A DNA stretch of 64,000 nucleotides, taken from positions 7,727 to 71,726 of the forward strand of contig DASVEF010000370.1 of the NCBI GenBank assembly GCA_036380715.1, in the 5' to 3' direction. This stretch comes from Thermoanaerobaculia bacterium (GTDB lineage Bacteria > Acidobacteriota > Thermoanaerobaculia > Multivoradales > UBA5704). Of the stretch, positions 1,083-58,240 are shown piece after piece. Position numbers and translations under genes: made by a program. How positions within the stretch are numbered: the stretch's first letter is position 1; every line of letters starts with the position of its first letter. A model generated the notes under the pieces. It was not told the DNA's origin. It made no database searches and saw only the letters and a list, made by a program, of their open reading frames with translations.

Positions 1083-2758
1083 GTGCGGACCTCATTCCGG
1101 CCAACGCCGGCGTCAAAAAAAGATGCATGCGCTGGATCGCCCTGGGCGATCGCGACGAGATCCTCGTCCGTGCTGCGGACGAAGAATTGTTGCGGCGTCT
1201 CTCCGCCGCTCCGCGCCCCGAGATAGGCGCGGAACAGCCGTTCGATGATGAGATGGACCTCGCTGCCCGGCACCCGCTTGAGGACCGGCCGGCCGATGGC
1301 CGCGCCGCTCGCCAGGCCGCCGCGCAGGAAGAGGTCGTAGCCCTGGATGCGCTCCCCGTTCGGGCCGCGCTCCCGCAGAGTGGTGCCCTGGAGCCCGATG
1401 TCGCCGATCCAGTGGTGGGCGCAGGCGTGCGGGCAGCCGTCGAGGTTGAGGCGCAGGCCCGAAGCCTCCTCGCCGAAGACCCGCTCCAGGTGCTCCACGA
1501 TCTCCCGCAGCCGCCCCTTGGTCTCGGCGACCGTGTAGTTGCAGAACGGATCGCCGGTGCAGGCGATGCTGGAGCTGCGCAGGGCGTTGACCTGGATCGG
1601 GAACCCCAGCTCCCCCACCTTCCGGACCACCTCGTCCACCCGCTCCCCGGGGATGTGGCTGAGGATGAAGTTCTGCCGGCGGGTCAGGCGGACCTCGCCG
1701 CCCCAGGACTCCGCGAGGTCGGCGACGGCCTTCATGGCGGCGCCGTCCATCAGCCCCAGATAGGCCGGGAACCCGGCGTAGAAGAGGCCGTCCTGGCTCT
1801 GCGGATGGATGCCGGTGTGGTCGTGCTCCTCGGCCGGTGGCGGAGGCGCCGCGCCGTCCCGGAGCCGCCGCCCCAGCTTCTCCTCGACGCGCGCCCGGAG
1901 AGCCTCGGCCCCGAGGTCGTGCACCATGAACTTCAGCCGCGCCCGGGTGCGCGACAGCCGGTACCTCAGATCCTCCCGCCAGACGTCCACGAGAGCCCGC
2001 AGCACCTCCAGCCCTTCCTCCAGCGGCACCCACACCTTCAGGTCGTCGGCCAGCCGGGGCCAGGTCGAGAGCCCGCCGCCGACCGTCACCGCGAAGCCCG
2101 GCCGCCCCTCCACCACAGAGCCGAGGAGGGCGATGCAGTGGATTTCCGGCGCGTTGCACTGGTGGGGGCAGGCCGCGATGGTGATCTTGTGCTTGCGCGG
2201 CAGGTCGGAGTACTCGCGGTTGCGCACGAAGAAGTCCGACGCCTCCTCCAGGAAAGGCTGGACCGCGAACAGCTCCTCCCGCGAGATCCCGGCGACCGGG
2301 CAGCCCGTAATGTTGCGCACGTTGTCGCCGCAGGCCCCGGCGGTGGTCATGCCCGCCGCGGCCACGGTCTCCAGCACCTCGGGGATCTTCTCCAGCTCGA
2401 GCCAGTGGATCTGGATGTTCTGGCGGGTGGTCAGCTCGCCGAAGCCCCGGCCGTAGCGCTCGGAGATCTCGCCCATCGTGCGCAGCTTCCCCGGGGTCAG
2501 CACGCCGCCCGGCACCTTGACCCGCATCATGAAATGGCCGAGCTTGGGCTTGTCGTGGTAGAGGCCGTACCACTGGAGCCGGACGAAGTCCTCCTCCGGC
2601 ACCGCCTCATACCCCGTCGTGATCATGGACGGCAGGTCGTGGATGACGTCGAGCCCCCCCTTCTCGTGCTTGAGGCGCTCGACGAAGTTCCGCTTGCGCA
2701 CCAGCTCCCAGGTGACTTCGCCCTCGGTGGCTGTTCGACTGCTGCCGGTACCGCTCAT
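1079..2758 (-). CDS. sir: sulfite reductase hemoprotein (ferredoxin/NADPH-type, CysI/Sir family; siroheme + 4Fe-4S)
   Basis: 559-aa ORF with nitrite/sulfite reductase ferredoxin-like and hemoprotein domains. Cys cluster motifs CGDNVRNITGCP, CPHQCNA and LDGCPHACAHHWIGDIG. Same operon as cysH. Confidence 0.9.
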   Translation of the reverse strand: MSGTGSSRTATEGEVTWELVRKRNFVERLKHEKGGLDVIHDLPSMITTGYEAVPEEDFVRLQWYGLYHDKPKLGHFMMRVKVPGGVLTPGKLRTMGEISERYGRGFGELTTRQNIQIHWLELEKIPEVLETVAAAGMTTAGACGDNVRNITGCPVAGISREELFAVQPFLEEASDFFVRNREYSDLPRKHKITIAACPHQCNAPEIHCIALLGSVVEGRPGFAVTVGGGLSTWPRLADDLKVWVPLEEGLEVLRALVDVWREDLRYRLSRTRARLKFMVHDLGAEALRARVEEKLGRRLRDGAAPPPPAEEHDHTGIHPQSQDGLFYAGFPAYLGLMDGAAMKAVADLAESWGGEVRLTRRQNFILSHIPGERVDEVVRKVGELGFPIQVNALRSSSIACTGDPFCNYTVAETKGRLREIVEHLERVFGEEASGLRLNLDGCPHACAHHWIGDIGLQGTTLRERGPNGERIQGYDLFLRGGLASGAAIGRPVLKRVPGSEVHLIIERLFRAYLGARSGGETPQQFFVRSTDEDLVAIAQGDPAHASFFDAGVGRNEVRT

Positions 2759-3204
2759 TAATAGACTCCTGGACCGAAACGTTGCGGAGGGCCTGGGCGA
2801 GCGCAGCTCCGCAGGGTAGACCCCTCCTGGGCTCTCGCCGTCGGGCGGAGCGGGTCACGCTAGCTTTGGCTTCGGGTCGGACCTTGGCGGATGCGAACGG
2901 CTACGCCGCTCACACCCGCTTGCTACATATGCAGCCAGGGGTGGGCTGGAACGTGACGGCGGCCATGGCACCGGGCGGAGGTGAGATCAGCGGTGACATT
3001 GGAGATGACTTTAGTCACCTTTACCTCGTTTGTCCAGTCCCCCTGCGGGTTTGCGGGTGACGGAGAGGTGTCAGACCGGTAACAAGGCTACACTTTCCCT
3101 CAGGAGGAAACCGTATGGCCGTGCCGGGTGCGAGAAAGAGGGTCGAAGGGGTCGTCCTGACCGGCTGGGGCTCGTAGCGCAGCCCCCACCGTTAACATAG
3201 GGCC

Positions 3205-4590
3205 ATGATTTCCGCGGCAGGCGAGGGCCCCCGGTTCTGGGACCAGCTCCTCCAGTTCATCGAGGAGGGGCGGGTCGTCCCCATCGTCGGCCCCGATCTC
3301 CTCGTCGCCGATGTCGAGGGACGCTCTGTCCTTCTCTACTCCTTTCTGGCGGAGCGGCTGGCGGAGTATCTGGAGGTCCCCGGGGGCGATCTCCCCGCGG
3401 CGGGCGCGCTGCACGAAGTAGCCTGCCGCTTCCTGAGCCAGGGCGGCCAGATCGAGGACATCTACTCCGGCCTGAAGCGGGTCTTCCCCTCCAGGGAGGC
3501 CTTTCCCATCCCGCAGCCGCTCCTCCAGCTCGCCGGGATCCGGCCGTTCAAGCTGTTCCTGACCACCACGTTCGACCCTCTTCTCCAGCAGGCCCTCGAC
3601 GAGTCTCGCTTTGGCGGGCAGCCGAGGACGCGGGTCTTCGCCTACTCCCCGAACCAGGTGCAGGACCTCGAACAGTCGGTGGACGAAATGGACCGGCCGG
3701 CCGTCTTCCACCTCTTCGGCCGCCTCTCGGCCATGCCGGAGTACGCGGTGACCGACGAGGACACCCTGGAGCTCGTCCATGCCCTGCAGTCCGAGACCCG
3801 GCGCCCCGGCCGGCTCTTCGACGAGCTCGACCGCCGGCAGCTCCTCCTGCTCGGCGGCGGCTTCTCCGACTGGCTGGCCCGCTTCTTCCTGCGCGCCCCC
3901 CGCAGCGAGCGCCTGTGGCTGGTGCGCGGCCGGACGGACATCGTCGCCGATGCCCGCATGCGCGACGACCTTTCCCTGGTCGCCTTTCTCAAGCACTTCA
4001 GCTCCCGCACCCGGATCGCCTCGCAGGGCGCGGTGGAATTCGTGGACGAGCTGCACCGGCGCTGGATCGAGCGGCACCCTCCCCAGGCCGCCGCGGCCGC
4101 GGAGCCGGCGCGCGCGCACGGACCGCTCGATATGCAGCCTGGAGCAGTCTTCTTGAGCTACGCCAGCGAGGACCGTCCCGTGGTGGAGGCGCTCAAGGAG
4201 GAGCTGGAGCGCGCCGGCCTGGACGTCTGGTTCGACCGCGACGCCCTGGAAGGGGGAGACGAGTACGAGAAGAAGATCCGGCGCAACATCGAGAGCTGCT
4301 CGCTGTTCGTCCCCGTGCTCTCGCACCATACCCTGACCTCGCGGCGGCGTTTCTTCCGCCTGGAATGGGACTGGGCCGAGAGGGTCGCCGTCCAGGCTCC
4401 TCCGAACCTGCGCTACATCGTGCCGCTGGCCGTCGACGACGTGGCGCCGGACGACCCGGCGCTGCCGGACCGGTTCAAGCGCCTGCACTGGGAGCGGCTG
4501 GCGCCGGGTCAACCCAATCCCGGCGTGGTCGAAACGCTGAAGCGGTGCTTCCGCGAGTATCAGCGGGCCACGGCCGAGGCCTCCAGGTGA
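3205..4590 (+). CDS. two-domain protein: N-terminal SIR2_2-like (DHS-like NAD-binding fold, non-canonical catalytic positions) + C-terminal TIR domain
   Basis: 461 aa. The C-terminus (VFLSYASEDRPVVEALKEELERAGLDVWFDRDALEGGDEYEKKIRRNIESCSLFVPVLSHH...RLEWDWAE) has the canonical TIR pattern. The N-terminal about 300 aa resembles the SIR2_2 layout (VVPIVGPDLL ~ GAGxS loop; FLTTTFDPLLQQAL ~ ITTNYDxLLE; VFHLFGRL ~ KLHGS) but with substitutions. Followed 13 nt later by the STAND NTPase gene. Confidence 0.75.
   Translation: MISAAGEGPRFWDQLLQFIEEGRVVPIVGPDLLVADVEGRSVLLYSFLAERLAEYLEVPGGDLPAAGALHEVACRFLSQGGQIEDIYSGLKRVFPSREAFPIPQPLLQLAGIRPFKLFLTTTFDPLLQQALDESRFGGQPRTRVFAYSPNQVQDLEQSVDEMDRPAVFHLFGRLSAMPEYAVTDEDTLELVHALQSETRRPGRLFDELDRRQLLLLGGGFSDWLARFFLRAPRSERLWLVRGRTDIVADARMRDDLSLVAFLKHFSSRTRIASQGAVEFVDELHRRWIERHPPQAAAAAEPARAHGPLDMQPGAVFLSYASEDRPVVEALKEELERAGLDVWFDRDALEGGDEYEKKIRRNIESCSLFVPVLSHHTLTSRRRFFRLEWDWAERVAVQAPPNLRYIVPLAVDDVAPDDPALPDRFKRLHWERLAPGQPNPGVVETLKRCFREYQRATAEASR
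4141..4530 (+). other. TIR domain region of the 3205-4590 product
   Basis: FLSYAxED...DVWFD...I...S...VPVLS TIR signature (residues about 313-440). Candidate catalytic Glu in RLEWDWAE. Confidence 0.7.
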
Positions 4591-4603
4591 CCGAGGCTTC
4601 CTG

Positions 4604-7600
4604 ATGGCGGAGCCCCTCCCTCGCGAAGCCGATCCCGGCACGGTCGACGCTGACAATCCCTGGCCCGGGCTGGCCTCTTTCCGGGAGGCGGACCGAGAGC
4701 TCTTCTACGGCCGGGAGACGGAGACCCAGGAGGTGCTGCGGCTGGCGCTGCGCGAGCGGCTGACGGTCCTCTTCGGGCTCTCCGGCCTCGGCAAGACCTC
4801 GCTGCTCCGGGCCGGCCTTTTCCCCCGGCTCCGCGAGCAGAACGTCCTGCCGGTCTACATCCGGCTGGACTTCTCTGAAGGCGGAGGCGCCCGCCGCACC
4901 CTGACCGATCAGATCCGGCAGGCGATCGCCCGCGAGGCCAGGGCCGCCGGCATCGAGGCTCCACCCCTCCCCGAGTCGGAGACGCTCTGGGAGTCCCTGC
5001 ACCGGCAGGAGGCGGAATTCTGGAGCCCGCGCAACCGCATCGTCACGCCGCTCCTCGTCTTCGACCAGTTCGAAGAGGTCTTCACCCTCGGACAGCGGAA
5101 TCCCTCCCGGGCTCGGGAGACCGAGGCGTTCCTCGCCGAGCTGGCGGACCTCTGCGAAGGGTCGCCGCCGGCGAGCGTCCGCGAGCGGCTGGAGGCGGAC
5201 CCGTCCGCGGCCCGCGAGCTCTCCTTCACCCGCCACGCCTACAAGATCCTCCTCAGCCTGCGCGAGGATTTCCTGCCCGAGCTGGAGGGGCTGCGCGGTC
5301 GCATCCGCTCGATCGTCCACAACCGCTTCCGCCTGCGGCGGATGAACGGCGACAACGCCCTGAAAGTAATCACCCAGGCGGGCGGCCACCTGGTCGAGCC
5401 GGACGTCCCCGAGCGGGTGGTCCGCTTCGTCGCCGGCAAGGAGAGCGACGGCGCGGTCCCGCTGGCCGGGCTGGAGATCGAGCCGGCGCTCCTCAGCGTC
5501 GTCTGCCGGGAGCTGAACAACAAGCGCCGCGCCCAGGGGCTGTCCCGCATCACCGCCGGCCTGGTGAGCGGCAACCGCGACGAGATCCTCTCCGAGCTCT
5601 ACGAAAGGAGCGTCGAGGACCTGGGACCGGAGGTCCGCGCCTTCGTCGAGGAGCGCCTGCTGACCCGGTCCGGCTTCCGCGACACGGTGGCCCTGGAGAA
5701 CGCCCTCGAGCTGCCCGGCGTCACCCGCGAGGCCCTGGACAGGCTGACCGACCGCCGGCTCCTGCGCATCGAGGACCGCGGCGGCATGCAGCGCCTGGAG
5801 CTGACCCACGACGTGCTGACCGGGGTCATCCGCAAGAGCCGCGACCTCCGCCGGGAGCGAGAGGCCGAGAGAAAGCTCCGGCGCAGTTGGCTGATCATCG
5901 CGCTCCTCGCCCTCGTCCTGGTCGGCGTTTTCACCCTCGCCGCTTGGGCACTCTGGGCAGAAAGGCGGGCGGAGCAGGCCCTGGCGGCCTCGGACGCCGG
6001 GAGGGCCTTGAGCCTTCGGGACAGCCGGCCCTCTCACGCCCTCGCCTACCTGGCCCGGGCGCTGCGCGCAGACCCGGACAACATCCCGGCGCAGAGCGTC
6101 CTCAGCGACCTCCTCCTCGGCAGAGCCTGGCCGAGGCCCGTCGCCGAGCTGCGGCTCGCGGACGCCGATTCGGTCCACCTCAGCGAGGATGGACGGTTCT
6201 TCGCCGCGGTCTCAGAGGACTGGACGGTCCGCGTCTGGGACACCCGGACGCTCCAGAAGACGGGAACGGTCCGCCCGGAAGACGCCGCCGAATCCCTCGA
6301 ATTGAGCCGGGATGGCCGGCGCATGCTGATCCTCTCCCCCGCCTTGGCGCGGCTCTGGGACGTTCGCACCGGCCAGCCTCTCGGACGCTTTCCGCTGAGA
6401 GAAGAGAGATCCCACGCGCTGCTCAGCCCGGACGGCCAGTGGATCGCCCTGGTTTACGGCGGCCACACCCTCGTCCTTCGCCACATCGACACGGGCAAGG
6501 AGCGCGAGATAAGGCTCCCCGTAGATCCCGCCATGATCCCCTACGGCGGCGGCTTCGAGGGTTTCGGGTTCAGCCCCGATAGCCGGAGGTTCTTCGCCAC
6601 CGACTCGCTGGCGGTCCTTCTCTGGGACGTCGGGAGCGGCCGCTCGATTCCCGGGCCGCCGGCAGGAATGATCCTTCACGTGGTTTTCAGCCCCGACAGC
6701 CGCCGCCTCCTGGTCACGGGGAACGAGCTGGTGGTTTGGGACACCGTCGTTGGCGGACCGTCCGAAGGGACCTTCGGTGGCGACGCGAACCGAGCATGGC
6801 TCAGCCCAAGAGGCGGGAGGCTTGCGACCTATCATGCGCCCGAAGCCGCGCTCCGGATCTGGAGCATCCGCGATCCGCGGGGACCCTTGACGATCTCGAA
6901 GCCCAACCTGCTCCACGCTCAATTCAGCCACGACGGCCAGCTCCTCCTGACCACGTCCCAGGAGGGGGTGGAGCTGTGGGACGCCGACACCGGCCATCCG
7001 GTCAGCCAACCGCTCTGCGATTGCCTGCAAGGCCGCTTCCTCGAAGGCACCCGCCAGGTCGTCACGAGCGACGACAGCGGCATCCTCAGGGTCTGGAGCT
7101 CTGAGCCCGCGCGGACCGGCACGGAGCTCCTCTACGATTCTGAGAGCCTGTACCCTGTCTTTAGCCAGGACGGGAGCCGCCTCGCGTTGCAATCGCGGGA
7201 TGGCGTGGTCCATTTCTGGGACACCACCGCCGTCCGGTCCGTGGAATCCCCGGTCCGCAACGTCGATCTCCGGCTCAGCGCGGACGGCCGCTTTCTGCTG
7301 GAGCAGCGGAAAAGCACGGTACAGCTCTGGGATGCCCGCACCGGCCGTCGGACCGGACAGCCTTTGACACTGCCCGGCGACCGATACCAACTCCGCCCGG
7401 ACAAGGATCTCGATTCCGAGAGGGAGGTCCTGGGCATCCGGAGGGGCTCCACAGTCCAGCTCTGGAGCTTCGCCACAGGCCGGCAGGTGGGAGAGGTCCA
7501 ACAGAGCCAGGAGGTCACGGACCTCGCGTTCAGCCCTGGCGGCGACCGGCTCGTCACCGTCTCCCCGCAAGGCGTGATCCGCACCTGGGACTCGCGGACG

Positions 7601-8461
7601 GGCGAGCCGCTCGACCTCGTCTACCACGAGAGCCCCGTCGTCTCCTTCGACCTCAGCCAGGATGGCGAGCGGATTGCGACGGGCACCCGGAGGGGGCTCG
7701 CAAGGATCTGGGACCTCCGGTCCGGCGAGCTGCTCGTCGGTCCTCTCCGCCACCGGTATCCGGTGAGCTTCGTCAAATTCCAGCCCGCAGGCCGCCTGCT
7801 CCTGACCCGTGCGCAGAACACTCTCAGGCTCTGGGACACCCGGACGGGGCAGCCCACCGGCGGAGCGCTCGATCAAAAGGGGGGCATCGGGTTCGCTCAG
7901 CTCAGCCCGGACGGCTCCCGCATCCTGGTCCAGACGATCGGCGAGTCCCCCCTCCTGCTGGACGCCCAGACGGGGCAGCTCCTCGTCAGAGCTTCTCTCC
8001 CTGTTCCCGACTCGACTTTTTACGAGGCGCGGCTCAGCCCGACCGGCGAGCTCCTGTGGGTTGCCCTTCTCGACCGGGTCCACGTCTTCGCCGTCCCCCT
8101 CTTTCCGAAGAAGGACCGGGAGCTCCTCGCCCGCTGGGCCGAGGCCGTCGGCGGCTGGACCCTCGACGGGGAAGGCCGGCTGGTGGAAATTCGCGATCAG
8201 CTCGCGCGCCTCAACGGCTTGCGCCGGGAAACCGCGAAAGCTCCTCTCGGCCAGCTTGGGGTTGCCTCCCTGATCCGCTGGTTCCTCTCCGACCCGCGGA
8301 CGCGCACGATGTCCCCCGTCCTGGACCTCACCGTCGAGCAATCCATCCGCCGCCATCTCGAAGCCGGAGACTGGCGCGGAGCCGCGGAAGCCTTCCCCGG
8401 CCACCCGTTGCTCCTCGAGCATCGGCCCCCGCCGGTTCCCATTACTCCGGACGAGCCCTGA
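4604..8461 (+). CDS. STAND-class P-loop NTPase (nSTAND/NACHT-like) with internal transmembrane helix and about 14 WD40 repeats (two predicted 7-bladed propellers)
   Basis: 1285 aa. N-terminal NPWPGLASFREADRELFYGRE motif typical of cyanobacterial-type STAND-WD40 NTPases. Walker A GLSGLGKTSLL, Walker B LLVFDQFEEVF. Hydrophobic helix SWLIIALLALVLVGVFTLAAWALW flanked by RKLRRS / ERRAEQ. Then 14 WD-type repeats (VRVWDTRT, RLWDVRTG, LLWDVGSG, VVWDTVVG, ELWDADTG, HFWDTTAV, QLWDARTG, RTWDSRTG, RIWDLRSG, RLWDTRTG ...). Confidence 0.85.
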   Translation: MAEPLPREADPGTVDADNPWPGLASFREADRELFYGRETETQEVLRLALRERLTVLFGLSGLGKTSLLRAGLFPRLREQNVLPVYIRLDFSEGGGARRTLTDQIRQAIAREARAAGIEAPPLPESETLWESLHRQEAEFWSPRNRIVTPLLVFDQFEEVFTLGQRNPSRARETEAFLAELADLCEGSPPASVRERLEADPSAARELSFTRHAYKILLSLREDFLPELEGLRGRIRSIVHNRFRLRRMNGDNALKVITQAGGHLVEPDVPERVVRFVAGKESDGAVPLAGLEIEPALLSVVCRELNNKRRAQGLSRITAGLVSGNRDEILSELYERSVEDLGPEVRAFVEERLLTRSGFRDTVALENALELPGVTREALDRLTDRRLLRIEDRGGMQRLELTHDVLTGVIRKSRDLRREREAERKLRRSWLIIALLALVLVGVFTLAAWALWAERRAEQALAASDAGRALSLRDSRPSHALAYLARALRADPDNIPAQSVLSDLLLGRAWPRPVAELRLADADSVHLSEDGRFFAAVSEDWTVRVWDTRTLQKTGTVRPEDAAESLELSRDGRRMLILSPALARLWDVRTGQPLGRFPLREERSHALLSPDGQWIALVYGGHTLVLRHIDTGKEREIRLPVDPAMIPYGGGFEGFGFSPDSRRFFATDSLAVLLWDVGSGRSIPGPPAGMILHVVFSPDSRRLLVTGNELVVWDTVVGGPSEGTFGGDANRAWLSPRGGRLATYHAPEAALRIWSIRDPRGPLTISKPNLLHAQFSHDGQLLLTTSQEGVELWDADTGHPVSQPLCDCLQGRFLEGTRQVVTSDDSGILRVWSSEPARTGTELLYDSESLYPVFSQDGSRLALQSRDGVVHFWDTTAVRSVESPVRNVDLRLSADGRFLLEQRKSTVQLWDARTGRRTGQPLTLPGDRYQLRPDKDLDSEREVLGIRRGSTVQLWSFATGRQVGEVQQSQEVTDLAFSPGGDRLVTVSPQGVIRTWDSRTGEPLDLVYHESPVVSFDLSQDGERIATGTRRGLARIWDLRSGELLVGPLRHRYPVSFVKFQPAGRLLLTRAQNTLRLWDTRTGQPTGGALDQKGGIGFAQLSPDGSRILVQTIGESPLLLDAQTGQLLVRASLPVPDSTFYEARLSPTGELLWVALLDRVHVFAVPLFPKKDRELLARWAEAVGGWTLDGEGRLVEIRDQLARLNGLRRETAKAPLGQLGVASLIRWFLSDPRTRTMSPVLDLTVEQSIRRHLEAGDWRGAAEAFPGHPLLLEHRPPPVPITPDEP
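5887..5958 (+). other. predicted single transmembrane helix inside the STAND NTPase (between NTPase/helical module and WD40 region)
   Basis: 24 consecutive hydrophobic residues with positive-inside flank (RKLRRS). Prediction by eye only. Confidence 0.55.
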
Positions 8462-8541: not shown

Positions 8542-9288
8542 ATGGGCGCAATTCCACTGCAACGCGATATCGACTATCCGGAATCCGACGGACAGCCCAT
8601 GGCAGAGACCGCCCTCCACCGCCGAGAGATGGTGGACCTCACCGCCGCGCTGGACCATTGGTACCTCGACGCGGCGGATGTGGCGGTGGAGAGCAATCTC
8701 TTCCTCTACTACGTCGAAGGCAACCCGCGGGCGGTGGTCTCCCCCGATGTCTTTGTTGCGCTCGGCGTGCCCAAGAGGGAGCGCAGGATCTACAAGCTTT
8801 GGGAGGAAGGCCGCGCCCCGTCCATGGTCATCGAGGTGACCTCGCTCTCGACCAAGGACGAGGACCTCTACGGCAAGAAGAGCTGTTACGAGAGGCTCGG
8901 CGTGCCGGAGTACTTCCTGCACGACCCTTGCGGGGAGTATCTGAGCCCGCCGCTCCTGGGCTATCGCCTGGTGCGTGGCCAATACCGCCTGATGAAGCCG
9001 GCAGCCGACGGCTCGCTGATCAGCAAGGTCACGGGGCTGACGCTCCAGCCCGAGGGGCAGAGGTTGCGTCTGGTGGATACTGCCACTGGAAAGCTGCTGT
9101 CGTGGGTCGCAGAGTCCCAGGCGGCCGAAGACCGGGAGGAGGAGGCGCAGCGGGCATGGCAGGAGGCGGAAGTACGAGCGGCTCAGGCCGAAGCCCGGGC
9201 AGCCCAGGAAGCCCAGGCGCGGCGGCAGGCCGAGGAGGAGTTGGCCCGTCTGCGCCGCGAGCTCGCCAAATGGGATTCGGCCGGCTGA
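8542..9288 (+). CDS. Uma2-family (DUF820) PD-(D/E)XK-like endonuclease with C-terminal coiled-coil
   Basis: 248 aa from ATG with a GAGGA RBS. Uma2 motifs PDVFVALGVP...MVIEVTSLST...DLYGKKSCYERLGVPEY. C-terminal Ala/Glu/Arg-rich heptad-like tail. Confidence 0.8.
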   Translation: MGAIPLQRDIDYPESDGQPMAETALHRREMVDLTAALDHWYLDAADVAVESNLFLYYVEGNPRAVVSPDVFVALGVPKRERRIYKLWEEGRAPSMVIEVTSLSTKDEDLYGKKSCYERLGVPEYFLHDPCGEYLSPPLLGYRLVRGQYRLMKPAADGSLISKVTGLTLQPEGQRLRLVDTATGKLLSWVAESQAAEDREEEAQRAWQEAEVRAAQAEARAAQEAQARRQAEEELARLRRELAKWDSAG

Positions 9289-9368
9289 CCTTCTTCCCCA
9301 TTCCTCTTCGATAGACTCCCACCCGGCCCTCCAAGCCGGGGGCTCTTTAGCTGATCACCGAGCCCCCG

Positions 9369-10985
9369 ATGGCCGACCGTCCCTCATCCCCCTGGACCCC
9401 ACTGAGGCAGCCGCTCTACCGGTCGTTGTGGATCGCCGCCGTGGCCTCCAACATCGGCACCTGGCTGCAGAGCGTCGGGGCGTCGTGGATGATGACCACG
9501 CTGTCGGCTTCGGCCACGATGGTGGCGCTGGTGCAGGCGGCGACCAGCCTTCCCATGTTCCTGCTGTCGCTGCCCGCCGGGGCTCTCGCCGACGTGCTCG
9601 ACCGCCGGCGGCTGCTCCTGTTCACCGAGATCTGGATGGCCCTCAGCGCGGCAGGGCTCGGACTGCTGACCCTCGCCGGGGCGGCCGGCCCGTGGACGCT
9701 GCTGGTCTTCACCTTCCTGCTCGGGCTGGGGACCGCGCTCACCGCTCCCGCCTGGCAGGCGATCGTCCCCGAGATCGTGCCGCGGGAGGACCTGCCCGCC
9801 GCCATCACTCTCCAGAGCATCGGATTCAACATCGCCCGCGCCATCGGCCCGGCCATCGGCGGCCTACTCGTGGCGGCGACGGGGCCGGCGGTGACTTTCC
9901 TGCTCAACGCCGCGTCGTTCCTCGGCGTGCTGCTGGTGGTCTACCGCTGGAAGCGCCCGGCCATGGAGTCGGTCCTCCCGGGCGAGCGCATCCTCGGAGC
10001 GATGAGCACCGGACTGCGCTACGTGCGCCACGCGCCCGAGGTCCTCGCCGTGATCGCGCGGGGGAGCACGTTCGTCCTCTGCGCCAGCTCCCTGTGGGCG
10101 CTGCTGCCGGTGGTCGCCAGCACCGAGCTGAGGCAGGGACCGGCGGGGTACGGCCTGCTCCTCGCCTCTCTCGGCGTCGGAGCGGTCTCGGGCGCGATGG
10201 TCCTGCCGCGGCTGCGCCGGGGAGGAGAGGGCTCGATGGACGGCATCGTGGCCGTGGCGACCCTGGTCTTCGCGGGCGCCACGGTCGCCCTCGGATCGCT
10301 GCGCAGCTTTCCCCTTCTCTGCCTGGCGCTGGTCTTCGCGGGCGGCGCCTGGCTCTGCCTGCTCTCCAGCCTGAACGTGGCGATCCAGACGGTGGTCCCC
10401 TCCTGGGTGCGCGGCCGGGCCTTGTCGGTCTACATGCTGATCTTCTTCGGCGGCCTCGCGGGCGGCAGCGCGCTCTGGGGAGCGGTGGCCGACCACGCGG
10501 GCACCTCCCGCGCGCTCTGGATCTCCGCGGCCGGCATGATCGCCGGCCTCGCCGCCACCTGGCGCATCCACCTGCGCTCGGGCGAAGGGCTCAACCTGGC
10601 CCCGTCGCGGCAATGGCCCGCACCGCTGGCCAGCCACGACCTGGAGCTCGACCGCGGGCCGGTCCTGGTGTCCATCCGCTACCAGATCGATCCCGAGAAG
10701 GCTTCCGAGTTCGCGGCGGCCATGCGGGAGCTGCGCCGCATCCGCCTGCGCGACGGCGCCCTGCAATGGGGTCTCTTCACCGTCGCCGAAACTCCGGGCG
10801 CCTACGCCGAGGTCTTCCTCGTCCGCTCCTGGATCGAGCATCTGCGCCAGCACGAGCGGGTCACCGTCGCCGACGAGGAGATCCGGCACCGCGCCGGCTC
10901 TTTCCACGTCGGCGAAGAGCCTCCCGTGGTCCGGCACCTCATCGCCGAGCCCATGATCCGGGTTAGAATTCCTGGGGCAGATTGA
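9369..10985 (+). CDS. MFS transporter (EntS/YbdA-like) fused to a C-terminal ABM-like (antibiotic biosynthesis monooxygenase / Dabb) domain
   Basis: 538 aa. About 12 TM helices, with MFS motif LADVLDRRRLLL after TM2. The C-terminal about 125 aa (PVLVSIRYQIDPEKASEFAAAMRELRRIRLRDGALQWGLFTVAETPGAYAEVFLVRSWIEHLRQHERVTVAD) fits the ferredoxin-like ABM pattern. Confidence 0.85.
   Translation: MADRPSSPWTPLRQPLYRSLWIAAVASNIGTWLQSVGASWMMTTLSASATMVALVQAATSLPMFLLSLPAGALADVLDRRRLLLFTEIWMALSAAGLGLLTLAGAAGPWTLLVFTFLLGLGTALTAPAWQAIVPEIVPREDLPAAITLQSIGFNIARAIGPAIGGLLVAATGPAVTFLLNAASFLGVLLVVYRWKRPAMESVLPGERILGAMSTGLRYVRHAPEVLAVIARGSTFVLCASSLWALLPVVASTELRQGPAGYGLLLASLGVGAVSGAMVLPRLRRGGEGSMDGIVAVATLVFAGATVALGSLRSFPLLCLALVFAGGAWLCLLSSLNVAIQTVVPSWVRGRALSVYMLIFFGGLAGGSALWGAVADHAGTSRALWISAAGMIAGLAATWRIHLRSGEGLNLAPSRQWPAPLASHDLELDRGPVLVSIRYQIDPEKASEFAAAMRELRRIRLRDGALQWGLFTVAETPGAYAEVFLVRSWIEHLRQHERVTVADEEIRHRAGSFHVGEEPPVVRHLIAEPMIRVRIPGAD
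10596..10985 (+). other. ABM-like soluble domain at the C-terminus of the MFS transporter
   Basis: Pattern hhhhxhxYxhxPExxxxFxxxxxxL...G...xxLhxx...PxxYxEhxxWxSxExHxxH. Confidence 0.5.
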
Positions 10986-11018
10986 AAGCAGGGTGGAGGT
11001 GAGGGTCCGAACGGCCGA

Positions 11019-11369
11019 TTTATATACTCCGGCCGAGAGCTTGTATAGACCCGCCCCTTGGAACCGCTTCAGGAACCGCAGGTTTATATAGGGAGAGGGG
11101 TGTACCTATATAGACTGTCCGTCTCCCTATATAGACGCGCAGCTTTCTTATATAGACCGGAGCCTGCGCAAAGGCGGGGGACCTCCCGTTCAGACTGTCC
11201 GAACCCTCTCCGAAAGCTCTCCGGATCGCCGCCCTATATAAAAAGAGCGCTCATCTATATAGATCCTGAGCTCCGAGACGCTTCCCCGCCGCCTCTCTAT
11301 ATATTTTGACGGCTCCCCCATATGAACCGGCCACCTTCCTATATAATCAGGCTGCAAAAGTATATAGAG
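11019..11369. repeat. AT-rich intergenic array: about 12 copies of a C(C/T)TATATAG(A) palindromic core positioned at 21-bp multiples
   Basis: Cores end near 11027, 11048, 11091, 11113, 11134, 11155, 11241, 11262, 11304, 11346 and 11367 (gaps 21, 43, 22, 21, 21, 86, 21, 42, 42, 21), with a degenerate copy near 11324. Lies in a 70% GC background between the MFS gene and vapB. Spurious ORFs across it encode YI-rich junk. Confidence 0.8.
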
Positions 11370-11419
11370 TGGCCGTCCGGAAACCTTGGGCGGGCCTTTC
11401 AAAAGGGAGGAGGAGACGC

Positions 11420-11629
11420 ATGCTCACCAGTATGGATCTGGACGAGGAGCTGTTCAAGAAGGCGTGGAATCTTTCGAGCCAGCGGACCAAGAAGGGCGTC
11501 GTGGAAGAGGCGTTGCGCATCTACGTCCGCCTCCACGAGCAGGCCCAGGTGCGTAGTCTGCGGGGCAAGCTGGCGTGGCTGGGCGATCTCGACCAGCAGA
11601 GGAAGCGGCGCCGTGCAAGCTCTCGTTGA
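11420..11629 (+). CDS. vapB: type II antitoxin, VapB-like (DUF2191-type)
   Basis: 69 aa starting MLTSMDLDEELFKKAWNLSSQRTKKGVVEEALRIYVR. Strong RBS GGGAGGAGGAG. Its 3' end overlaps the downstream PIN toxin gene. Confidence 0.7.
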   Translation: MLTSMDLDEELFKKAWNLSSQRTKKGVVEEALRIYVRLHEQAQVRSLRGKLAWLGDLDQQRKRRRASSR

Positions 11630-12005
11630 CGCTTCGGTCTGGATCGACTATTTCACCGGCGAGGCCACGCCGCAGACCGACCTCCTGGACTCCCTGCTCG
11701 GGAAGGCGGCCCTCACCGTGGCCGACCTGACGCTCGCCGAGGTCCTCTACGGCATTCCGGACGAGCGCAGCCGGCGCCTGGCGGCCGACGCGCTGACCAA
11801 GTTCTGGCTGGTCGAGGTCCGCGGGATCGACCTGGCCCAGAAGAGCGCGGTCAACTATCACACCCTGCGCGTCCGCGGCATCGAGGTCACGACCACGGAG
11901 TGCGAGATCGCCACGTTCTGCCTGGAGAACGGCTTCTCTCTCCTCCACTCCAGCCCGGGCTACGAGCCGTTCGAGACGTACCTGGGGCTCAAGGGGGTGC
12001 GGTAA
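11613..12005 (+). CDS. vapC: PIN-domain ribonuclease toxin VapC
   Basis: GTG start. PIN signature LVDASVWIDYF...LAADALTKFWLVEVRGIDL...HTLRVRGIEVTTTECEIATFCLENGFSLLH. Confidence 0.85.
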   Translation: MQALVDASVWIDYFTGEATPQTDLLDSLLGKAALTVADLTLAEVLYGIPDERSRRLAADALTKFWLVEVRGIDLAQKSAVNYHTLRVRGIEVTTTECEIATFCLENGFSLLHSSPGYEPFETYLGLKGVR

Positions 12006-12032
12006 GATTTCCTCTCGACATGGAGACTCACG

Positions 12033-12569
12033 ATGAAAGCACAGCTCGTTCTGGCCTGCTTCGTCCTCGCCGCGCCCGCTCTGGTGAAGGCCGAAGATCC
12101 GCCGCCCTGCCCTCTCCACGCCCAGCACCAGCAGGAGGCTCAGAGCCCGGGGCACGACCACCATGCCGGGGTCGACGCCCGGGGCGACAAGGTCATGGGC
12201 TTCGAGCACACCCGCACGACCCACCACTTCCTGCTGAAGCCGGACGGCGGCGTGATCCAGGTCGAGGCCAAGGACTTGGCGGACCGCGAGAGCATCGTCA
12301 AGACCCGCCACCACCTCGCAGACATCGCCGAAAAGTTCACGGCCGGCGACTTCTCCATGCCGTTCGCCATCCACGACCGGGTCCTCCCCGGCGTGCCGGA
12401 GATGACCCGCCTCAAAGGAGAGCTACGCTTCCGCTACGAAGAGACCGAGCGCGGCGCCCGCGTCCACATCGCCACGGAGAGCCCCGAGGCCCGCGAAGCC
12501 GTCCACGCCTTCCTGCGCGCACAGATCGAGGATCACCGCACGGGCGATCCGCTCACTCCGACTCCGTAG
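12033..12569 (+). CDS. secreted hypothetical protein with His-rich N-terminal region
   Basis: Signal peptide MKAQLVLACFVLAAPALVKA. Mature N-terminus PPPCPLHAQHQQEAQSPGHDHHAGVD...HTRTTHHF. No family recognised. Confidence 0.6.
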   Translation: MKAQLVLACFVLAAPALVKAEDPPPCPLHAQHQQEAQSPGHDHHAGVDARGDKVMGFEHTRTTHHFLLKPDGGVIQVEAKDLADRESIVKTRHHLADIAEKFTAGDFSMPFAIHDRVLPGVPEMTRLKGELRFRYEETERGARVHIATESPEAREAVHAFLRAQIEDHRTGDPLTPTP

Positions 12570-25970: not shown

Positions 25971-26071
25971 TCGGATGCCCTCCAGGTTGAGGGTTGGTGA
26001 AGCAGGAGGATTCTAGCGCCCGGCGAAGATCGGGACCAGCCCGAAGAGGTCATCGATCTCGCTGGCTCAGG

Positions 26072-27073
26072 TTAACGAGAGGCTTTCTGGACGACCCAGG
26101 ACTCGCCAACGGTGCTCCAGAACTCGCCTGGAGCCATGACGTCCTTCCAGCGCTCGTAATCGGGATGCTCGGAGAGAGCCTTCACGGAGGCGTAGCCGTC
26201 CTCGTCGAGCGAAGTCAGCAGGATCTCCTCGGCTTCCAAATAGTCGAGGAGATACGGGGAATGGCTGGTCGCCACGATCTGCAGCTCGGGATTCTGCTTC
26301 TGAAGCGACCGGATTTGGGAGATTAGATCTCCCAGGGCCTTGGGATGGAGACCGCGCTCCAGATTGTCGACAAGGATGAGCTGAGGAGCCTTGGGAGATG
26401 CAAGCACCGTCAGAAGGGCCAGAGTCACCAAGGTCCCTTCACTAACGGCATAGGCTGGGATACCGCTTCCTCCTTTCATGTCAAAGAGGAGCTCATATCC
26501 GATATCGCCCGATTCGAGAGCTGTACGCTTCAGTCGCAGGCCTTGCACCGAAGGGACGACTTCCCGAAGACGATCCACGATACTTCCGAAGAGCTCTGGG
26601 AATTCAAGCTGGAGACCGGAAAGAAACCATGACAGCCCCGTCCCGTCGGAAGGTAAGGTGTCGAGGATCTCCCGGATGTAAGCCGGAGCAGCAAGTTTCT
26701 TGAGGTCGATATCCAGGATTACTGGTCTTACCAGGGCCGAGTCTGGGAATTCAAATATTCTTACTCTCGGCATAGGTATTACTTCTGAAGACTCCATTCC
26801 AAGGGAAAATCGCTCGCCCTTGAATGCTCCTGAGATTTCGATCTTGAGTGGCCCTTCTGGCATTCGGCTCGTCAATACCGCCGAATCCTCCGGCACAATG
26901 GTAAACATAGCTCCTTGGCGCCCTTTAACGATCCGATATCCTGCATAGTTAAGCGCGAGCAAGATGCTGCTCTTGCCTGAGCCGTTAGGCCCTACGACGA
27001 GCGTCAGAGGCCGGAGCTTCACGTTGACGTTCCGTAACACCTTGAAGTTCCGCAATGAGAGGGACTCGATCAT
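26072..27073 (-). CDS. AAA_21/AAA_15-type (ABC-like) ATPase, orphan, low-GC (likely horizontally acquired)
   Basis: 333 aa. Walker A GPNGSGKSS. Walker B-like QLILVDNLERGLHP. H-loop ATSHSPYLL. About 55% GC in a 70% GC context. Confidence 0.8.
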   Translation of the reverse strand: MIESLSLRNFKVLRNVNVKLRPLTLVVGPNGSGKSSILLALNYAGYRIVKGRQGAMFTIVPEDSAVLTSRMPEGPLKIEISGAFKGERFSLGMESSEVIPMPRVRIFEFPDSALVRPVILDIDLKKLAAPAYIREILDTLPSDGTGLSWFLSGLQLEFPELFGSIVDRLREVVPSVQGLRLKRTALESGDIGYELLFDMKGGSGIPAYAVSEGTLVTLALLTVLASPKAPQLILVDNLERGLHPKALGDLISQIRSLQKQNPELQIVATSHSPYLLDYLEAEEILLTSLDEDGYASVKALSEHPDYERWKDVMAPGEFWSTVGESWVVQKASR

Positions 27074-55795: not shown

Positions 55796-56473
55796 CTACC
55801 ATGCCAGCCGATCCCGCAGAGACGTCCAGCGCCCCCGGCTGCCCAGGACCAGGTGGTCGTGGAGCTTGACGCCGAGCACGGCCGCCGCGTCCGCCAGATG
55901 GCGCGTGAATTGGAGGTCGTCCGCGCTCGGACTGGGATCGCCGCTGGGATGGGTGTGGAAGAGAACGACCCCGGCGGCGTTGCGCAGCAGGCACTCCTTG
56001 AGAATCTCCCGGGGATCGACGGCCGCCCGGTCGAGCGTGCCGCGGAAGATCTCCCGCTCGCCCAGCAGGCGGCTCCGGATGTCGAGGAACAGGGCCCCCA
56101 TGACCTCCTGGTCGCCGGTCGGATACCGCAGGCTCAGATAGCGGGCGATCTCGGCGGGCCGGCTCAGAAGATCCCGGTCCTCGTCCGCGACCTTCTCCTT
56201 GGCGAGACGGCGCGCGATCTCCAGGGCAGCCAGGAGCGACGCGGCCTTGGCCGGGCCGAGCCCCCGCCGCCGCAGAGTCTGGGGCGTGGCGCCCAGCAGG
56301 CCGGCGAGCCCTCCGTTCTCGTACAGGAGCTCCCGCGCGATCTCGAGCGCCGAGGCCCCGAGGCTCCCGGTGCGGAGCAGCACGGCGACCAGCTCCGAAT
56401 CCGCGAGCGAGCCGCTCCCCTGCTCCAGCAGCCGCTCCCGGGGGCGCTCCGTCTCCGGCAGCTCGCGGATCAT
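55796..56473 (-). CDS. radC: RadC-family JAB/MPN-domain protein (UPF0758)
   Basis: HhH N-terminal region. JAMM motif HTHPSGDPSPSADD. Overlaps cobB stop. Confidence 0.85.
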   Translation of the reverse strand: MIRELPETERPRERLLEQGSGSLADSELVAVLLRTGSLGASALEIARELLYENGGLAGLLGATPQTLRRRGLGPAKAASLLAALEIARRLAKEKVADEDRDLLSRPAEIARYLSLRYPTGDQEVMGALFLDIRSRLLGEREIFRGTLDRAAVDPREILKECLLRNAAGVVLFHTHPSGDPSPSADDLQFTRHLADAAAVLGVKLHDHLVLGSRGRWTSLRDRLAW

Positions 56474-57231
56474 CCAAGAGCCCGGCATCGCTCGATCTCC
56501 CCGGTCAGCTTCGGAAGGGCCTCCCCCGCCGGCGCGGCGATCTGCAGGTCCATCTGCCGCGAGTACGGGGTCGGCTCGGGATTGACCTCGATGACGCAGG
56601 CGCCCGCCCGGTGCGCCACATCGATCAGCCCGGCCGCGGGATAGACCGTGGAGGACGTGCCCACCGACAGGAACAGGTCGCACCGGGACGCCTCCCGCTG
56701 CGACCGCGAGAGCACCTCGGGATCGAGCGTCTCGCCGAACCAGACCACCGCCGGGCGAAACCTCCCGCCGCACTCGCAGAGCGGCGGCTCCTCGGGCGAC
56801 TCCGCGATCGCCTCGCCCATGTCCCGCAGCCGGCCGCAGACGTTGCAGCGCGCGTGCAGCAGGGTGCCGTGCAGCTCCAGCAGGCTCCGGCTCCCCGCTC
56901 GGGCGTGGAGGCCGTCGACGTTCTGGGTGACGAGGAGAAAGGACGGGAACAGGGTCTCCCATTGGACGAGCGCCAAGTGCGCCGGATTCGGCTGGGCGGC
57001 CGCGGCCGTCCGGTAGCGCCAGGCGTACCACTGCCAGACCTTCTCCGGGTGCGAGCGGAACGCCTCGGGGGTGGCCAGCTCTTCGGGGCGCATACGCTCC
57101 CAGAGCCCGCCGGCGCCGCGGAATGTGTCGAGCCCGCTCTCGCGCGACACCCCCGCGCCTGAGAAGGCGACAACGCGCCGGGCAGCGCGGATGCGCTCCC
57201 GGATCTCTTCGGGAATCCGCAAACTCTCCAT
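56470..57231 (-). CDS. cobB: NAD-dependent protein deacylase, Sir2 family (CobB)
   Basis: GAGVSRESGLDTFRG. Catalytic context TQNVDGLH. Zn ribbon CNVCG...CECGG. Confidence 0.9.
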   Translation of the reverse strand: MESLRIPEEIRERIRAARRVVAFSGAGVSRESGLDTFRGAGGLWERMRPEELATPEAFRSHPEKVWQWYAWRYRTAAAAQPNPAHLALVQWETLFPSFLLVTQNVDGLHARAGSRSLLELHGTLLHARCNVCGRLRDMGEAIAESPEEPPLCECGGRFRPAVVWFGETLDPEVLSRSQREASRCDLFLSVGTSSTVYPAAGLIDVAHRAGACVIEVNPEPTPYSRQMDLQIAAPAGEALPKLTGEIERCRALG

Positions 57232-57364
57232 TCGATACCCTCCCTCGGGCAGACGTGTGCCCGTTCACCCCTATATAAGACGGAAAACAGGTCCCGAATC
57301 TCGCACAGAATTTTTCGCCGGCGTCGCGTTGACACCCCGGCGTCCTCTTGCTACAAACGCGCCC

Positions 57365-58240
57365 ATGCCTTTGCTACCCACCAACTTCGGCCTGCTGGAG
57401 CCGGAAGACTGCGACTACGAGACCAGCCGCATCGTCGTGCTGCCCGTCCCCTTCGAGCGCACCACCTCCTATGGAAAAGGGACGACCGCCGGACCCGCGG
57501 CGATCATCCGCGCCTCGCAGGCCATGGAGCTGTGGGACGAGGAGCTGGGGACCGAGCCCTACCGGCAGGGGATCGCGACCCTCTCCCCTTTCCTCCCCGA
57601 GAGCTTCGACATGAAGGAGGCGCTCGCGGAGATCCAGGCCGAAGCCCGGGAGCACATGGAGAAGGGCAAGTTCGTGGTGACGCTCGGCGGCGAGCACAGC
57701 TTGAGCCAGGCGCCGATCCAGGCCGCGAAGGAGACCCACGGCAAGATCGGCGTGGTCCAGTTCGACGCCCACGCCGACCTGCGGGAGGAGTTCGAGGGGA
57801 CCCCCTACAGCCACGCGAGCGTCATGAAGCGGGTGGTCGACGCGGGCATCCCGACCCTGGCGGTGGGCATCCGCTCGCTCTCCTCCCCGGAAGCCGCGCT
57901 GGTCCGCAGAAAGGACCTGCCGGTGATCTGGGGCCACCAGCTCAACCGGGCCGCCGAGATGTTCCTGGAGATGCTCGCCTCCCTGCCCGAGAAGATCTAC
58001 CTCACCTTCGACGTCGACTACTTCGACCCCTCCCTGGTCCCCGCGACCGGCACTCCCGAGCCGGGCGGCGGCCTCTGGTATCCCACCCTGGGCCTCCTCC
58101 GCCACCTCTTCCAGACCAAGACCGTCGTCTCCATGGACGTGGTCGAGCTGGCTCCCATCGGTGGCCAGCCGGCGAGCGACTTCCTGACCTCGAAGCTGAT
58201 CTACAAGTGCCTGGGGTATCTGCAGGAGGCGGAGGAGTAG
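57365..58240 (+). CDS. speB: agmatinase / ureohydrolase (arginase family)
   Basis: Arginase-family metal-binding motifs GGEHS, DAHADL and SMDVVELAP. Start MPLLPTNF. Confidence 0.8.
   Translation: MPLLPTNFGLLEPEDCDYETSRIVVLPVPFERTTSYGKGTTAGPAAIIRASQAMELWDEELGTEPYRQGIATLSPFLPESFDMKEALAEIQAEAREHMEKGKFVVTLGGEHSLSQAPIQAAKETHGKIGVVQFDAHADLREEFEGTPYSHASVMKRVVDAGIPTLAVGIRSLSSPEAALVRRKDLPVIWGHQLNRAAEMFLEMLASLPEKIYLTFDVDYFDPSLVPATGTPEPGGGLWYPTLGLLRHLFQTKTVVSMDVVELAPIGGQPASDFLTSKLIYKCLGYLQEAEE

Follow-up and report, generated by a model that had tools for sequence, protein, structure and literature searches.

The 64,000-nucleotide stretch of Thermoanaerobaculia DNA analysed here (contig DASVEF010000370.1, hereafter the window, with positions counted from its first letter) carries a vapBC gene pair that is preceded by an intergenic array of twelve short palindromic sites spaced by multiples of two helical turns. 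This lattice exists, far beyond chance, and it is exclusively linked to one VapB/VapC subclade. We are confident that this array belongs to vapBC and functions in protein binding under a constraint on its phase. From the sequence comparisons presented below, we further propose, with a probability of roughly 0.7, that it may be a multi-operator platform of vapBC, with VapB or the VapBC complex as putative binder acting in the way that we describe.

Twelve palindromic sites on one lattice

The motif TATATAG matches the window 13 times on the two strands, and 12 of these 13 matches lie within 11085-11367, for an expectation from shuffled sequences of 0.06 per window. Exact TATATA occurs 11 times, 10 of them inside the intergenic region 10986-11419, where they span 11021-11366 (core starts in Table 1), and two degenerate cores, TGTATA at 11042 and CATATG at 11319, bring the total of the array to 12. 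The successive core-to-core distances are 21, 43, 22, 21, 21, 86, 21, 42, 21, 21 and 21 bp, and the 12 cores fall on a 21.25-bp lattice at units 0, 1, 3, 4, 5, 6, 10, 11, 13, 14, 15 and 16. Phase coherence is high (Rayleigh R = 0.989 at a period of 21.25 bp): when 12 sites were placed at random 20,000 times and all periods between 15 and 30 bp were tried, this value was never reached. In mononucleotide shuffles of the intergenic region, which is 434 bp long, the mean number of cores was 0.21 and the maximum 4. The sequence-only reading of this DNA had described about 12 TATATAG-type copies in a phased array, which these figures bear out. Its list of spacings as multiples of two turns also holds, except that the two consecutive 42-bp steps in that list arose from skipping the degenerate site at 11319.

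Each site of the array is a 10-bp palindrome, YYTATATARR, with pyrimidines 5' of the core and purines 3' of it. The spacers, already thought to be non-conserved, are indeed mutually unrelated: Tandem Repeats Finder called no tandem repeat on the array and the repeat search recovered the cores alone. The GC-rich surroundings (supposed to be about 70%) were measured at ~0.68-0.70 for the window and 0.61 for the bin 11001-12000, and the intergenic region itself has a GC content of 0.546. The AT content of the spacers is slightly higher within dyads than between them (0.40 vs 0.34), and no claim is built on this difference.

The 12 sites form six dyads with a site-to-site distance of 21-22 bp, and an 86-bp core-free gap precedes dyad 4. 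The array starts 35 bp past the stop codon of an MFS_3 transporter gene (9369-10985) and its last core (11361) lies 59 bp ahead of the vapB ATG, this position being -21 to -29 in some relatives. Two open reading frames (ORFs) that cross the array (11058-11309 on the plus strand, 11190-11402 on the minus strand) were rejected as coding sequences, since the spacers diverge and carry indels in close relatives. The sites at 11085 and 11128 are prolonged by GGGAGAGGG/CCGTCTCCC into an 18-nt inverted repeat (11082-11099 and 11119-11136, 89% complementary), which is kept in two close relatives, L201 and L202, and may reflect either an extended half-site or pairing of dyad 2 with dyad 3. The lone extra site that had been noticed upstream of cobB is real as well. 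This site, cCTATATAAg at 57270-57279, matches the array consensus with no partner at +/-21 bp, and is situated upstream of two genes, by 40 bp for a SIR2-family (CobB-like) gene on the minus strand (56470-57231) and by ~95 bp for an arginase-family gene that begins at 57365. Possible explanations are a stray VapB site, a -10-like element and a chance occurrence.

Table 1. Coordinates of the array, its dyads and the vapBC genes in the window.
Feature	Position	Strand	Remarks
Whole array, 12 palindromic sites	11019-11368		occupancy XX.XXXX...XX.XXXX
Dyad 1: ttTATATAct (core 11021) + ctTGTATAga (core 11042)	11019-11049		21 bp apart
Dyad 2: ttTATATAgg (core 11085) + ccTATATAga (core 11107)	11083-11114		22 bp apart
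Dyad 3: ccTATATAga (core 11128) + ctTATATAga (core 11149)	11126-11156		21 bp apart
Dyad 4: ccTATATAaa (core 11235) + tcTATATAga (core 11256)	11233-11263		21 bp apart
Dyad 5: tcTATATAtt (core 11298) + ccCATATGaa (core 11319)	11296-11326		second site degenerate
Dyad 6: ccTATATAat (core 11340) + agTATATAga (core 11361)	11338-11368		first site contains TATAAT
Shine-Dalgarno-like GGGAGGAGGAG	11405-11415	+	4 nt ahead of vapB ATG; read from sequence
vapB, 69 aa	11420-11629	+	VapB_antitoxin PF09957 (ribbon-helix-helix clan)
vapC, 130-aa PIN-domain protein	11613-12005	+	PF01850, NF047959

The array accompanies one VapB subclade

VapB homologues at 59-75% identity were placed on their contigs, and 70 further loci came from a metagenome scan. 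Two types of VapB N-terminus were distinguished, an "FTS-type", (M/V)(F/L)TS[LVMF][DE][ILV]D, to which the window VapB belongs with MLTSMDLD, and a canonical "MRTN-type", MRTN[IV]V[LI]DD. Arrays were then called by a motif-agnostic test that accepts any 6-mer present at least 6 times with an R at 21 bp of at least 0.9, applied to FTS-type loci having at least 400 bp of upstream sequence. A phased 6-mer was found upstream in 34 of 35 FTS-type loci and in none of the 28 MRTN-type relatives; the 35th FTS-type locus, L130, carries four dyads. All homologues of the FTS subclade have a long, array-filled gap upstream of vapB. Their arrays comprise 8-19 in-phase cores in 4-8 dyads over 300-450 bp, mostly with R at 21 bp of 0.9-1.0 (the weakest being L130, with 0.8), and core density is 14-26 per kb inside the arrays vs 0-0.3 per kb elsewhere in the loci. 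The occupancy XX.XX.XX..XX.XX.XX, that is dyads every 63 bp with a central step of 84 bp, is shared by 8 loci, and arrays persist down to 59% VapB identity, with motif turnover.

The unit formed by the array and vapBC was found in at least 6 different gene neighbourhoods, in which only vapB and vapC are constant: an MFS transporter with STAND-WD40, OmpA with an ABC transporter, BtrH_N with an alcohol dehydrogenase, GlyS with a two-component system, SecA with IMPDH and GMP synthase, and MerR with PemK. The ORF that follows vapC is not conserved between loci; the one at 12033-12569 in the window was rejected as a third gene of the module, being non-homologous to the ORFs at the same position in L122 and L130. 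The array defines a VapBC subclade in Thermoanaerobaculia-like soil bacteria, and its layout follows the gene pair in dozens of them. The MRTN-type relatives (L161-L197) carry a compact element less than 50-60 bp from the start codon, composed of TGTATAATACACA, which is extended -10-like and overlaps an ATACACA repeat, and, ~27 bp downstream, of TATACACA continued by (C/T); a GC-richer subgroup has TATACACA...AATATACACA instead. This compact element is probably both promoter and operator. GC-rich repeated elements were also seen upstream of some arrays, with a ~60-bp unit present twice in L127 (4190-4265 and 4415-4475) and a GGGATGCCAGCGGTCCCAGG motif common to L122 (~5465-5495) and L128 (~4445-4475), of which L127 has the variant GGGACGCCAGCGCTCCCAGG. 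They look like repetitive extragenic palindromic (REP) sequences or miniature inverted-repeat transposable elements (MITEs); the window has none of them, and they do not belong to the array.

Core sequence changes with the VapB subclade, and cores and phase are constrained

Different VapB subclades use the same lattice with different cores, namely TATATA, CATATG, CCTATGAA/TTCATAGG and TTGATATCAA. The core of the clade to which the window belongs is YCTATATAGR, and other subclades have TTCATATGAA or TCCATATGGA. Cores are uniform within each locus and divergent between clades, which is the pattern that would be expected from a linked, co-evolving reader, and the only genes linked to the arrays are vapB and vapC. 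Because the core changes with the VapB subclade, it appears to be a specific recognition sequence rather than generic AT-rich DNA or a -10 element. At clade level, an ATAT centre goes together with invariant T3 and S4 of the VapB ribbon, and the variants TATATA, CATATG, CCTATG and GATATC accompany different ribbons: the FTSFEIDD (F5) subclade is paired with CCTATG in 6/6 loci, and VEVDEP with GATATC in 3/3 loci, the TTGATATCAA arrays of these three loci standing beside VapBs that have an N-terminal extension and the ribbon FTSVEVDEP. In all six F5 loci the dyads read TTCCTATGAA-N11-TTCATAGGAA, so that single sites are asymmetric and the dyad is a perfect inverted repeat; since F5 dyads are themselves inverted repeats, we take the dyad as the symmetric unit of the array.

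Three close relatives have a VapB in the same 90%-identity cluster as that of the window and alignable upstream regions; L201 is syntenic with the window, L202 has other neighbouring genes and L203 is fragmentary. In the three-way comparison of the window, L201 and L202, identical columns amount to 86% for cores, 38% for spacers, and 56% for both the +/-2 flanks and the leader. The two degenerate cores of the window (11042 and 11319) are perfect TATATA in close relatives. The central core-free gap is 86 bp long in the window, vs 84 bp for L202 and 61 bp for L201, and this indel of ~25 bp leaves the lattice within ~2 bp of register, with phase roughly kept. These sequence comparisons indicate that cores and phase are under purifying selection.

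The VapB and VapC proteins

The sequence-only reading had placed vapBC downstream of the array, and domain searches agree. The window VapB, which is identical to HEX7186296.1 from a Thermoanaerobaculia (Acidobacteriota) metagenome-assembled genome (MAG), matches PF09957 with 36 bits over residues 1-46, and the window VapC reaches 109 bits for NCBIfam NF047959 (cut-off 80) besides matching PF01850. The two genes are co-oriented and overlap by 17 nt. In an AlphaFold2 model of VapB, the N-terminus is extended and is followed by helices at 9-18 and 24-41 and then by C-terminal helices, a predicted layout in ribbon-helix-helix (RHH) order. VapB residues W53, R61, R64 and R69 are invariant across the clade and may be compared with Trp54 and Arg62 of VapB11. 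Structural searches were of little help for VapB: Foldseek of the model against the PDB gave a weak VapB11 match only, the chain being small and the result uninformative, and spurious tetratricopeptide repeat matches dominated phmmer against the PDB, VapB11 being the sole antitoxin among these weak structural and PDB matches. The nearest solved homologues of VapC are VapC15 (4CHG, E = 2e-9) and VapC11 (6A7V) of M. tuberculosis. PADLOC had no match for VapB or VapC.

The acidic residues of the PIN domain were compared in 18 array-clade VapCs (the window and L122, L124, L127, L128, L130, L134, L136, L138, L140, L141, L146, L147, L149, L150, L153, L154 and L155). The first two are kept in 18/18 (D6 and E43 in the window), and the third is Glu instead of Asp, beside a 1-residue deletion, the window E96 aligning with Asp98 of VapC11. 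Moreover, the H-x-D-x-D stretch is replaced in 18/18 by a non-acidic one, mostly H-S-(S/A)-P-G, such that Ser114 of the window VapC aligns with Asp116 of VapC11 and Gly116 with Asp118, whereas D-x-D is intact in 8/8 canonical MRTN-type relatives. The array-clade PIN toxin may therefore be catalytically altered or inactive. Several points go the other way: the NCBIfam cut-off for VapC equivalogs is passed, VapB keeps the Trp and Arg that plug the active site in VapB11, and an acidic residue, E118, is present after an aromatic one. The fourth acidic residue is also the least conserved of the four in PIN domains.

Other features of the window and of other genomes

Further upstream in the window, a SIR2_2-TIR_2 protein (3205-4590, with TIR-type matches in PADLOC) is followed by a 1285-aa nSTAND1-WD40 NTPase (4604-8461), and together they look like a defence pair. 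In L201 (1-829 and 4146-6210) a TIR domain is fused to a STAND-WD40 protein and a second STAND-WD40 gene comes after vapBC. Between the STAND and MFS_3 genes, the plus-strand segment at ~8542-9288 corresponds to 7123-7869 of an identical Logan contig (L001), where a gene with PF05685 (Uma2-family endonuclease) is called; a Pfam scan of the alternative frame 8658-9314 gave no match. The kilobase of lowest GC (26001-27073, 0.558) holds a minus-strand AAA_21/AAA_15 (AbiEii/OLD-like) ATPase gene (26072-27073), possibly acquired horizontally.

A contig pattern scan for three TATATAG copies with gaps of 13-15 nt gave matches that, among those listed, come from AT-rich Bacteroidota, Firmicutes and archaea, and these are side leads only. 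A Thermoflexales MAG (WFQZ01) has the palindrome TTGCTATATAGCAA in six copies at 22-23 bp spacing on two of its contigs (L072, 1350-1466; L047, 4756-4872); those of L072 lie just upstream of a 1236-aa ORF (1572-5282). Toxin-antitoxin (TA) genes are not adjacent, and these arrays are a separate system with a similar two-turn layout. In Porphyromonas pasteri, gcTATATAgc palindromes occur in threes, 22 bp apart, at many dispersed loci (L006, L008, L014, L023, L057, L063 and L079), and a Prevotellaceae MAG has ~11 near-perfect 21-bp tandem repeats that contain TATATAG (L020, 1-250).

How VapBC might occupy the array

The idea of a multi-operator region, one of several put forward from the letters of the DNA, is the one that has gained from the comparisons: the linkage of 34/35 vs 0/28 loci, the purifying selection on cores and the dependence of the core on the VapB subclade all speak for it. 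We infer that one VapB RHH dimer would read each 10-bp palindrome YYTATATARR, sites of this kind fitting the expectation for a dimeric reader, and that one closed VapB4C4 hetero-octamer would sit on each dyad, with its two RHH heads on the same face of the helix. Up to six octamers (~24 VapB and 24 VapC chains) would then line one face of ~350 bp upstream of vapB, and the outcome would be a highly cooperative, switch-like autorepression of vapBC; the array would also hold a large pool of the VapBC complex at its own locus. Known structures are compatible with this geometry by analogy. VapBC11 is a closed VapB4C4 hetero-octamer whose RHH heads are ~60 Å apart, comparable to FitAB bound to DNA (PMC6265470), and FitAB of N. 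gonorrhoeae is a tetramer of heterodimers that contacts its 36-bp operator, an inverted repeat, via two RHH motifs (PMC3384007, PMC3920265). A length of 21 bp of B-DNA covers ~71 Å on one face, and such a dyad might be reached by heads ~60 Å apart given mild bending or flexible linkers.

Several observations weigh against the proposal that VapBC occupies the array as a set of operators. Dyads are without exception spaced by multiples of 21 bp, odd multiples of 10.5 bp being absent, which goes beyond what independent octamers would need, as same-face multiples of ~10.5 bp would suffice. This strictness suggests inter-octamer contacts, or an open -B2-C2-B2-C2- filament in which empty positions are bound non-specifically. 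The size of the array, 350 bp and 12 sites, far exceeds usual autoregulation (PMC3920265). The site where transcription would be blocked is another difficulty, as a sigma-70 promoter scan of 10900-11700 found none in or near the array and the TATAAT inside site 11340 has, by inspection of the sequence, no acceptable -35 at 16-18 bp. The F/L-T-S ribbon of VapB is devoid of basic residues, which is unusual for an RHH reader. Co-variation of ribbon residues 5-7 with the bases flanking ATAT was also tried at residue level and discarded, the signal existing at clade level only: the ribbon LEI is paired with both TATATA and CATATG arrays, which makes residue-level co-variation ambiguous. Finally, the active-site acidic residues of VapC11 are Asp5, Glu44, Asp98 and Asp116, of which Asp116 is among the highly conserved ones (PMC6265470). 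The window VapC has no equivalent of Asp116 and so departs from this conserved set, and the module may thus not be a conventional TA pair.

Taken further, the last point would mean that this VapBC clade is no longer a simple TA pair and that its PIN subunit mainly serves as an architectural bridge, linking VapB dimers into a lattice or filament of 21-bp pitch. We regard this as unlikely, although it deserves to be spelled out. If true, a nucleoprotein body of ~350 bp, with six or more octamers, would exist at a single chromosomal address; it could then work as an ultrasensitive or bistable epigenetic switch, or else as a reservoir or sensor, tethered to DNA, from which the cargo is set free upon an attack on the DNA or the antitoxin. 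In the lineage of the window, the locus is surrounded by defence-like genes of the SIR2-TIR and STAND-WD40 kinds.

Alternative explanations

An unlinked DNA-binding protein, either a host regulator or a nucleoid-associated protein or xenogeneic silencer, might read the array and have vapBC as its regulated or silenced cargo. The region is locally AT-richer than its surroundings (0.546 vs ~0.69 GC), the VapB ribbon is without basic residues, and the window holds one further match to the site, at 57270. Such a factor would nevertheless need to have co-diverged repeatedly with VapB, as the core varies with the VapB subclade and is uniform in each array, and the arrays occur only beside this vapBC clade in ~35 loci and at least 6 contexts. 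Moreover, CCTATGAA and TTGATATCAA are specific sequences and not generic AT tracts. We therefore hold an unlinked reader to be improbable. The earlier proposal of a nucleation site for H-NS or another xenogeneic silencer loses its ground for the same reason, the sister clades carrying the specific cores CCTATGAA/TTCATAGG or TTGATATCAA on the same lattice. A site for H-NS, Lsr2 or MucR was rejected on these specific and clade-dependent motifs, and also as no cores occur at 26-27 kb, where the window has its other drop in GC content. Likewise, a promoter-type (-10-like) element, which had been envisaged too, does not agree with sister-clade cores that are not TATAAT-like.

A partition centromere or an iteron origin, relic or active, of an integrated plasmid-like element was among the first ideas for this array. 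Two-turn phased repeats do resemble iterons and RHH-bound centromeres, the two sub-clusters of three dyads recall the 5+5 layout of R1 parC, and vapBC is a classic plasmid-stabilisation module; the phased array adjoins the gene of an RHH-type protein, its putative binder. Yet none of rep, parA, parM and parB lies beside any locus examined, the flanks in the window included, and array-bearing contigs are up to 3.48 Mb long, with housekeeping genes nearby (SecA, IMPDH, GlyS and MetK among them). The clade is absent among 72,556 plasmids, in which the best matches are canonical VapBs below 46% identity, and from IMG/VR viral contigs. An iteron origin was discarded as the conserved part is limited to palindromic, directionless 10-bp cores, instead of a directional unit of 17-22 bp, with no rep gene nearby and, in the whole 64-kb window, no DnaA box (at most 1 mismatch); a partition centromere was discarded for want of a ParA or ParM gene in the window flanks or related loci and of a plasmid location. 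This reading is largely refuted and its remaining probability is very small; the likeness to RHH-bound centromeres is real but is only an analogy.

At the RNA level, transcription of the array could yield a long 5' leader or a type III-like repeat RNA that serves as antitoxin, VapC substrate or decoy. Type III TA loci have tandem repeats upstream of the toxin gene, and the plus-strand RNA of the array folds slightly better than shuffled sequences (z = -2.4), a value to be expected anyway from self-complementary cores. The sites are palindromic and strand-symmetric, and unconserved spacers that tolerate indels as long as helical phase is roughly kept imply a constraint on double-stranded DNA. 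A terminator scan of 10900-11700 found none, including between array and vapB, Rfam gave no match on 10500-12500, and a protein antitoxin is present. A ToxI-like repeat was thus rejected, and we would give an RNA element hardly any credence. The strict 21-bp rather than 10.5-bp lattice would also be expected from unit duplication, and the array could then be a decaying minisatellite without function, generated by 21-bp slippage during replication or by unequal crossing-over. This is strongly disfavoured by the contrast between fully diverged spacers and cores that are 86% identical; the recurrence of the XX.XX.XX..XX.XX.XX architecture in 8 loci and the persistence of arrays to 59% VapB identity with motif turnover leave it with almost no probability.

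Comparison with known systems

By gene content the module is a VapBC-type TA pair, and its array resembles, at sequence level, a TA operator multiplied about six-fold on a lattice. It shares with FitAB, VapBC11 and VapBC15 the combination of a PIN toxin and an RHH antitoxin encoded by overlapping genes, and with complexes of this type the prospect that RHH heads held ~60 Å apart by a VapC tetramer would read paired, related sites about two turns apart ahead of their own operon (PMC6265470, PMC3920265). Known VapBC systems have one inverted repeat or pseudo-palindrome or two operator sites, whereas the present array has 6 dyads on one lattice; their canonical VapB ribbon is R-T-N, whereas that of the array clade is F/L-T-S and its VapC lacks the Asp116 equivalent. 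Operator sites in described type II TA systems number one to four, with two in the Shigella VapBC and one pseudo-palindrome in the haloarchaeal VapBC; hipBA has four operators, and the ~120 bp of spreading of CcdAB form the largest TA operator complex described (PMC3920265). Full-text literature searches returned no description of comparable arrays.

The CcdA-CcdB system of the F plasmid is alike in that an RHH antitoxin reads a 6-bp palindrome and multiple complexes form a higher-order structure on the promoter (PMC3920265); its ~120 bp are, however, thought to be covered by spreading from one nucleation hexamer and its toxin is a gyrase poison, instead of 12 discrete phased sites and a PIN protein. 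In hipBA, several spaced palindromic operators are bound cooperatively by the antitoxin, with the toxin as co-repressor (PMC3920265), but these are four helix-turn-helix operators with no lattice over hundreds of bp, compared with at least 12 candidate RHH sites here. The closest architectural analogues appear to be the repeat arrays of RHH centromere proteins and of omega. The omega heptads of pSM19035 are an array of short repeats read by RHH dimers (PMC3920265). Plasmid arrays such as R1 parC/ParR, pSK41 parC and the ParG sites of TP228 place many short repeats upstream of the autoregulated operon of the binder, and RHH-bound centromeres form a large one-faced or superhelical nucleoprotein complex. 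Those centromeres consist of near-contiguous units of 7-20 bp, are plasmid-borne and work with a ParA or ParM motor, whereas the present sites are 21 bp apart with free spacers, chromosomal, and accompanied by a PIN partner and no NTPase. Plasmid iterons have a similar repeat spacing of ~21-22 bp, or two helical turns, but are directional units of 17-22 bp conserved over their full length; their neighbours are a rep gene and an AT-rich unwinding element, and the array has none of these features.

To conclude, our results point to a simple rule, namely that an FTS-type N-terminus of VapB predicts an array, and a conserved lattice with 12-19 sites over 300-450 bp and a recurrent XX.XX.XX..XX.XX.XX layout would be the largest TA operator known. 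As a natural, sequence-defined scaffold for the cooperation of VapBC octamers on DNA, it would suit the study of how conditional cooperativity scales with the number of sites. With at least 4 core variants on one lattice, it could also be a model for operator specificity that co-evolves with the RHH ribbon. As VapC has lost a catalytic Asp, it is conceivable that, in this clade, a toxin has been exapted into a structural subunit that organises DNA.

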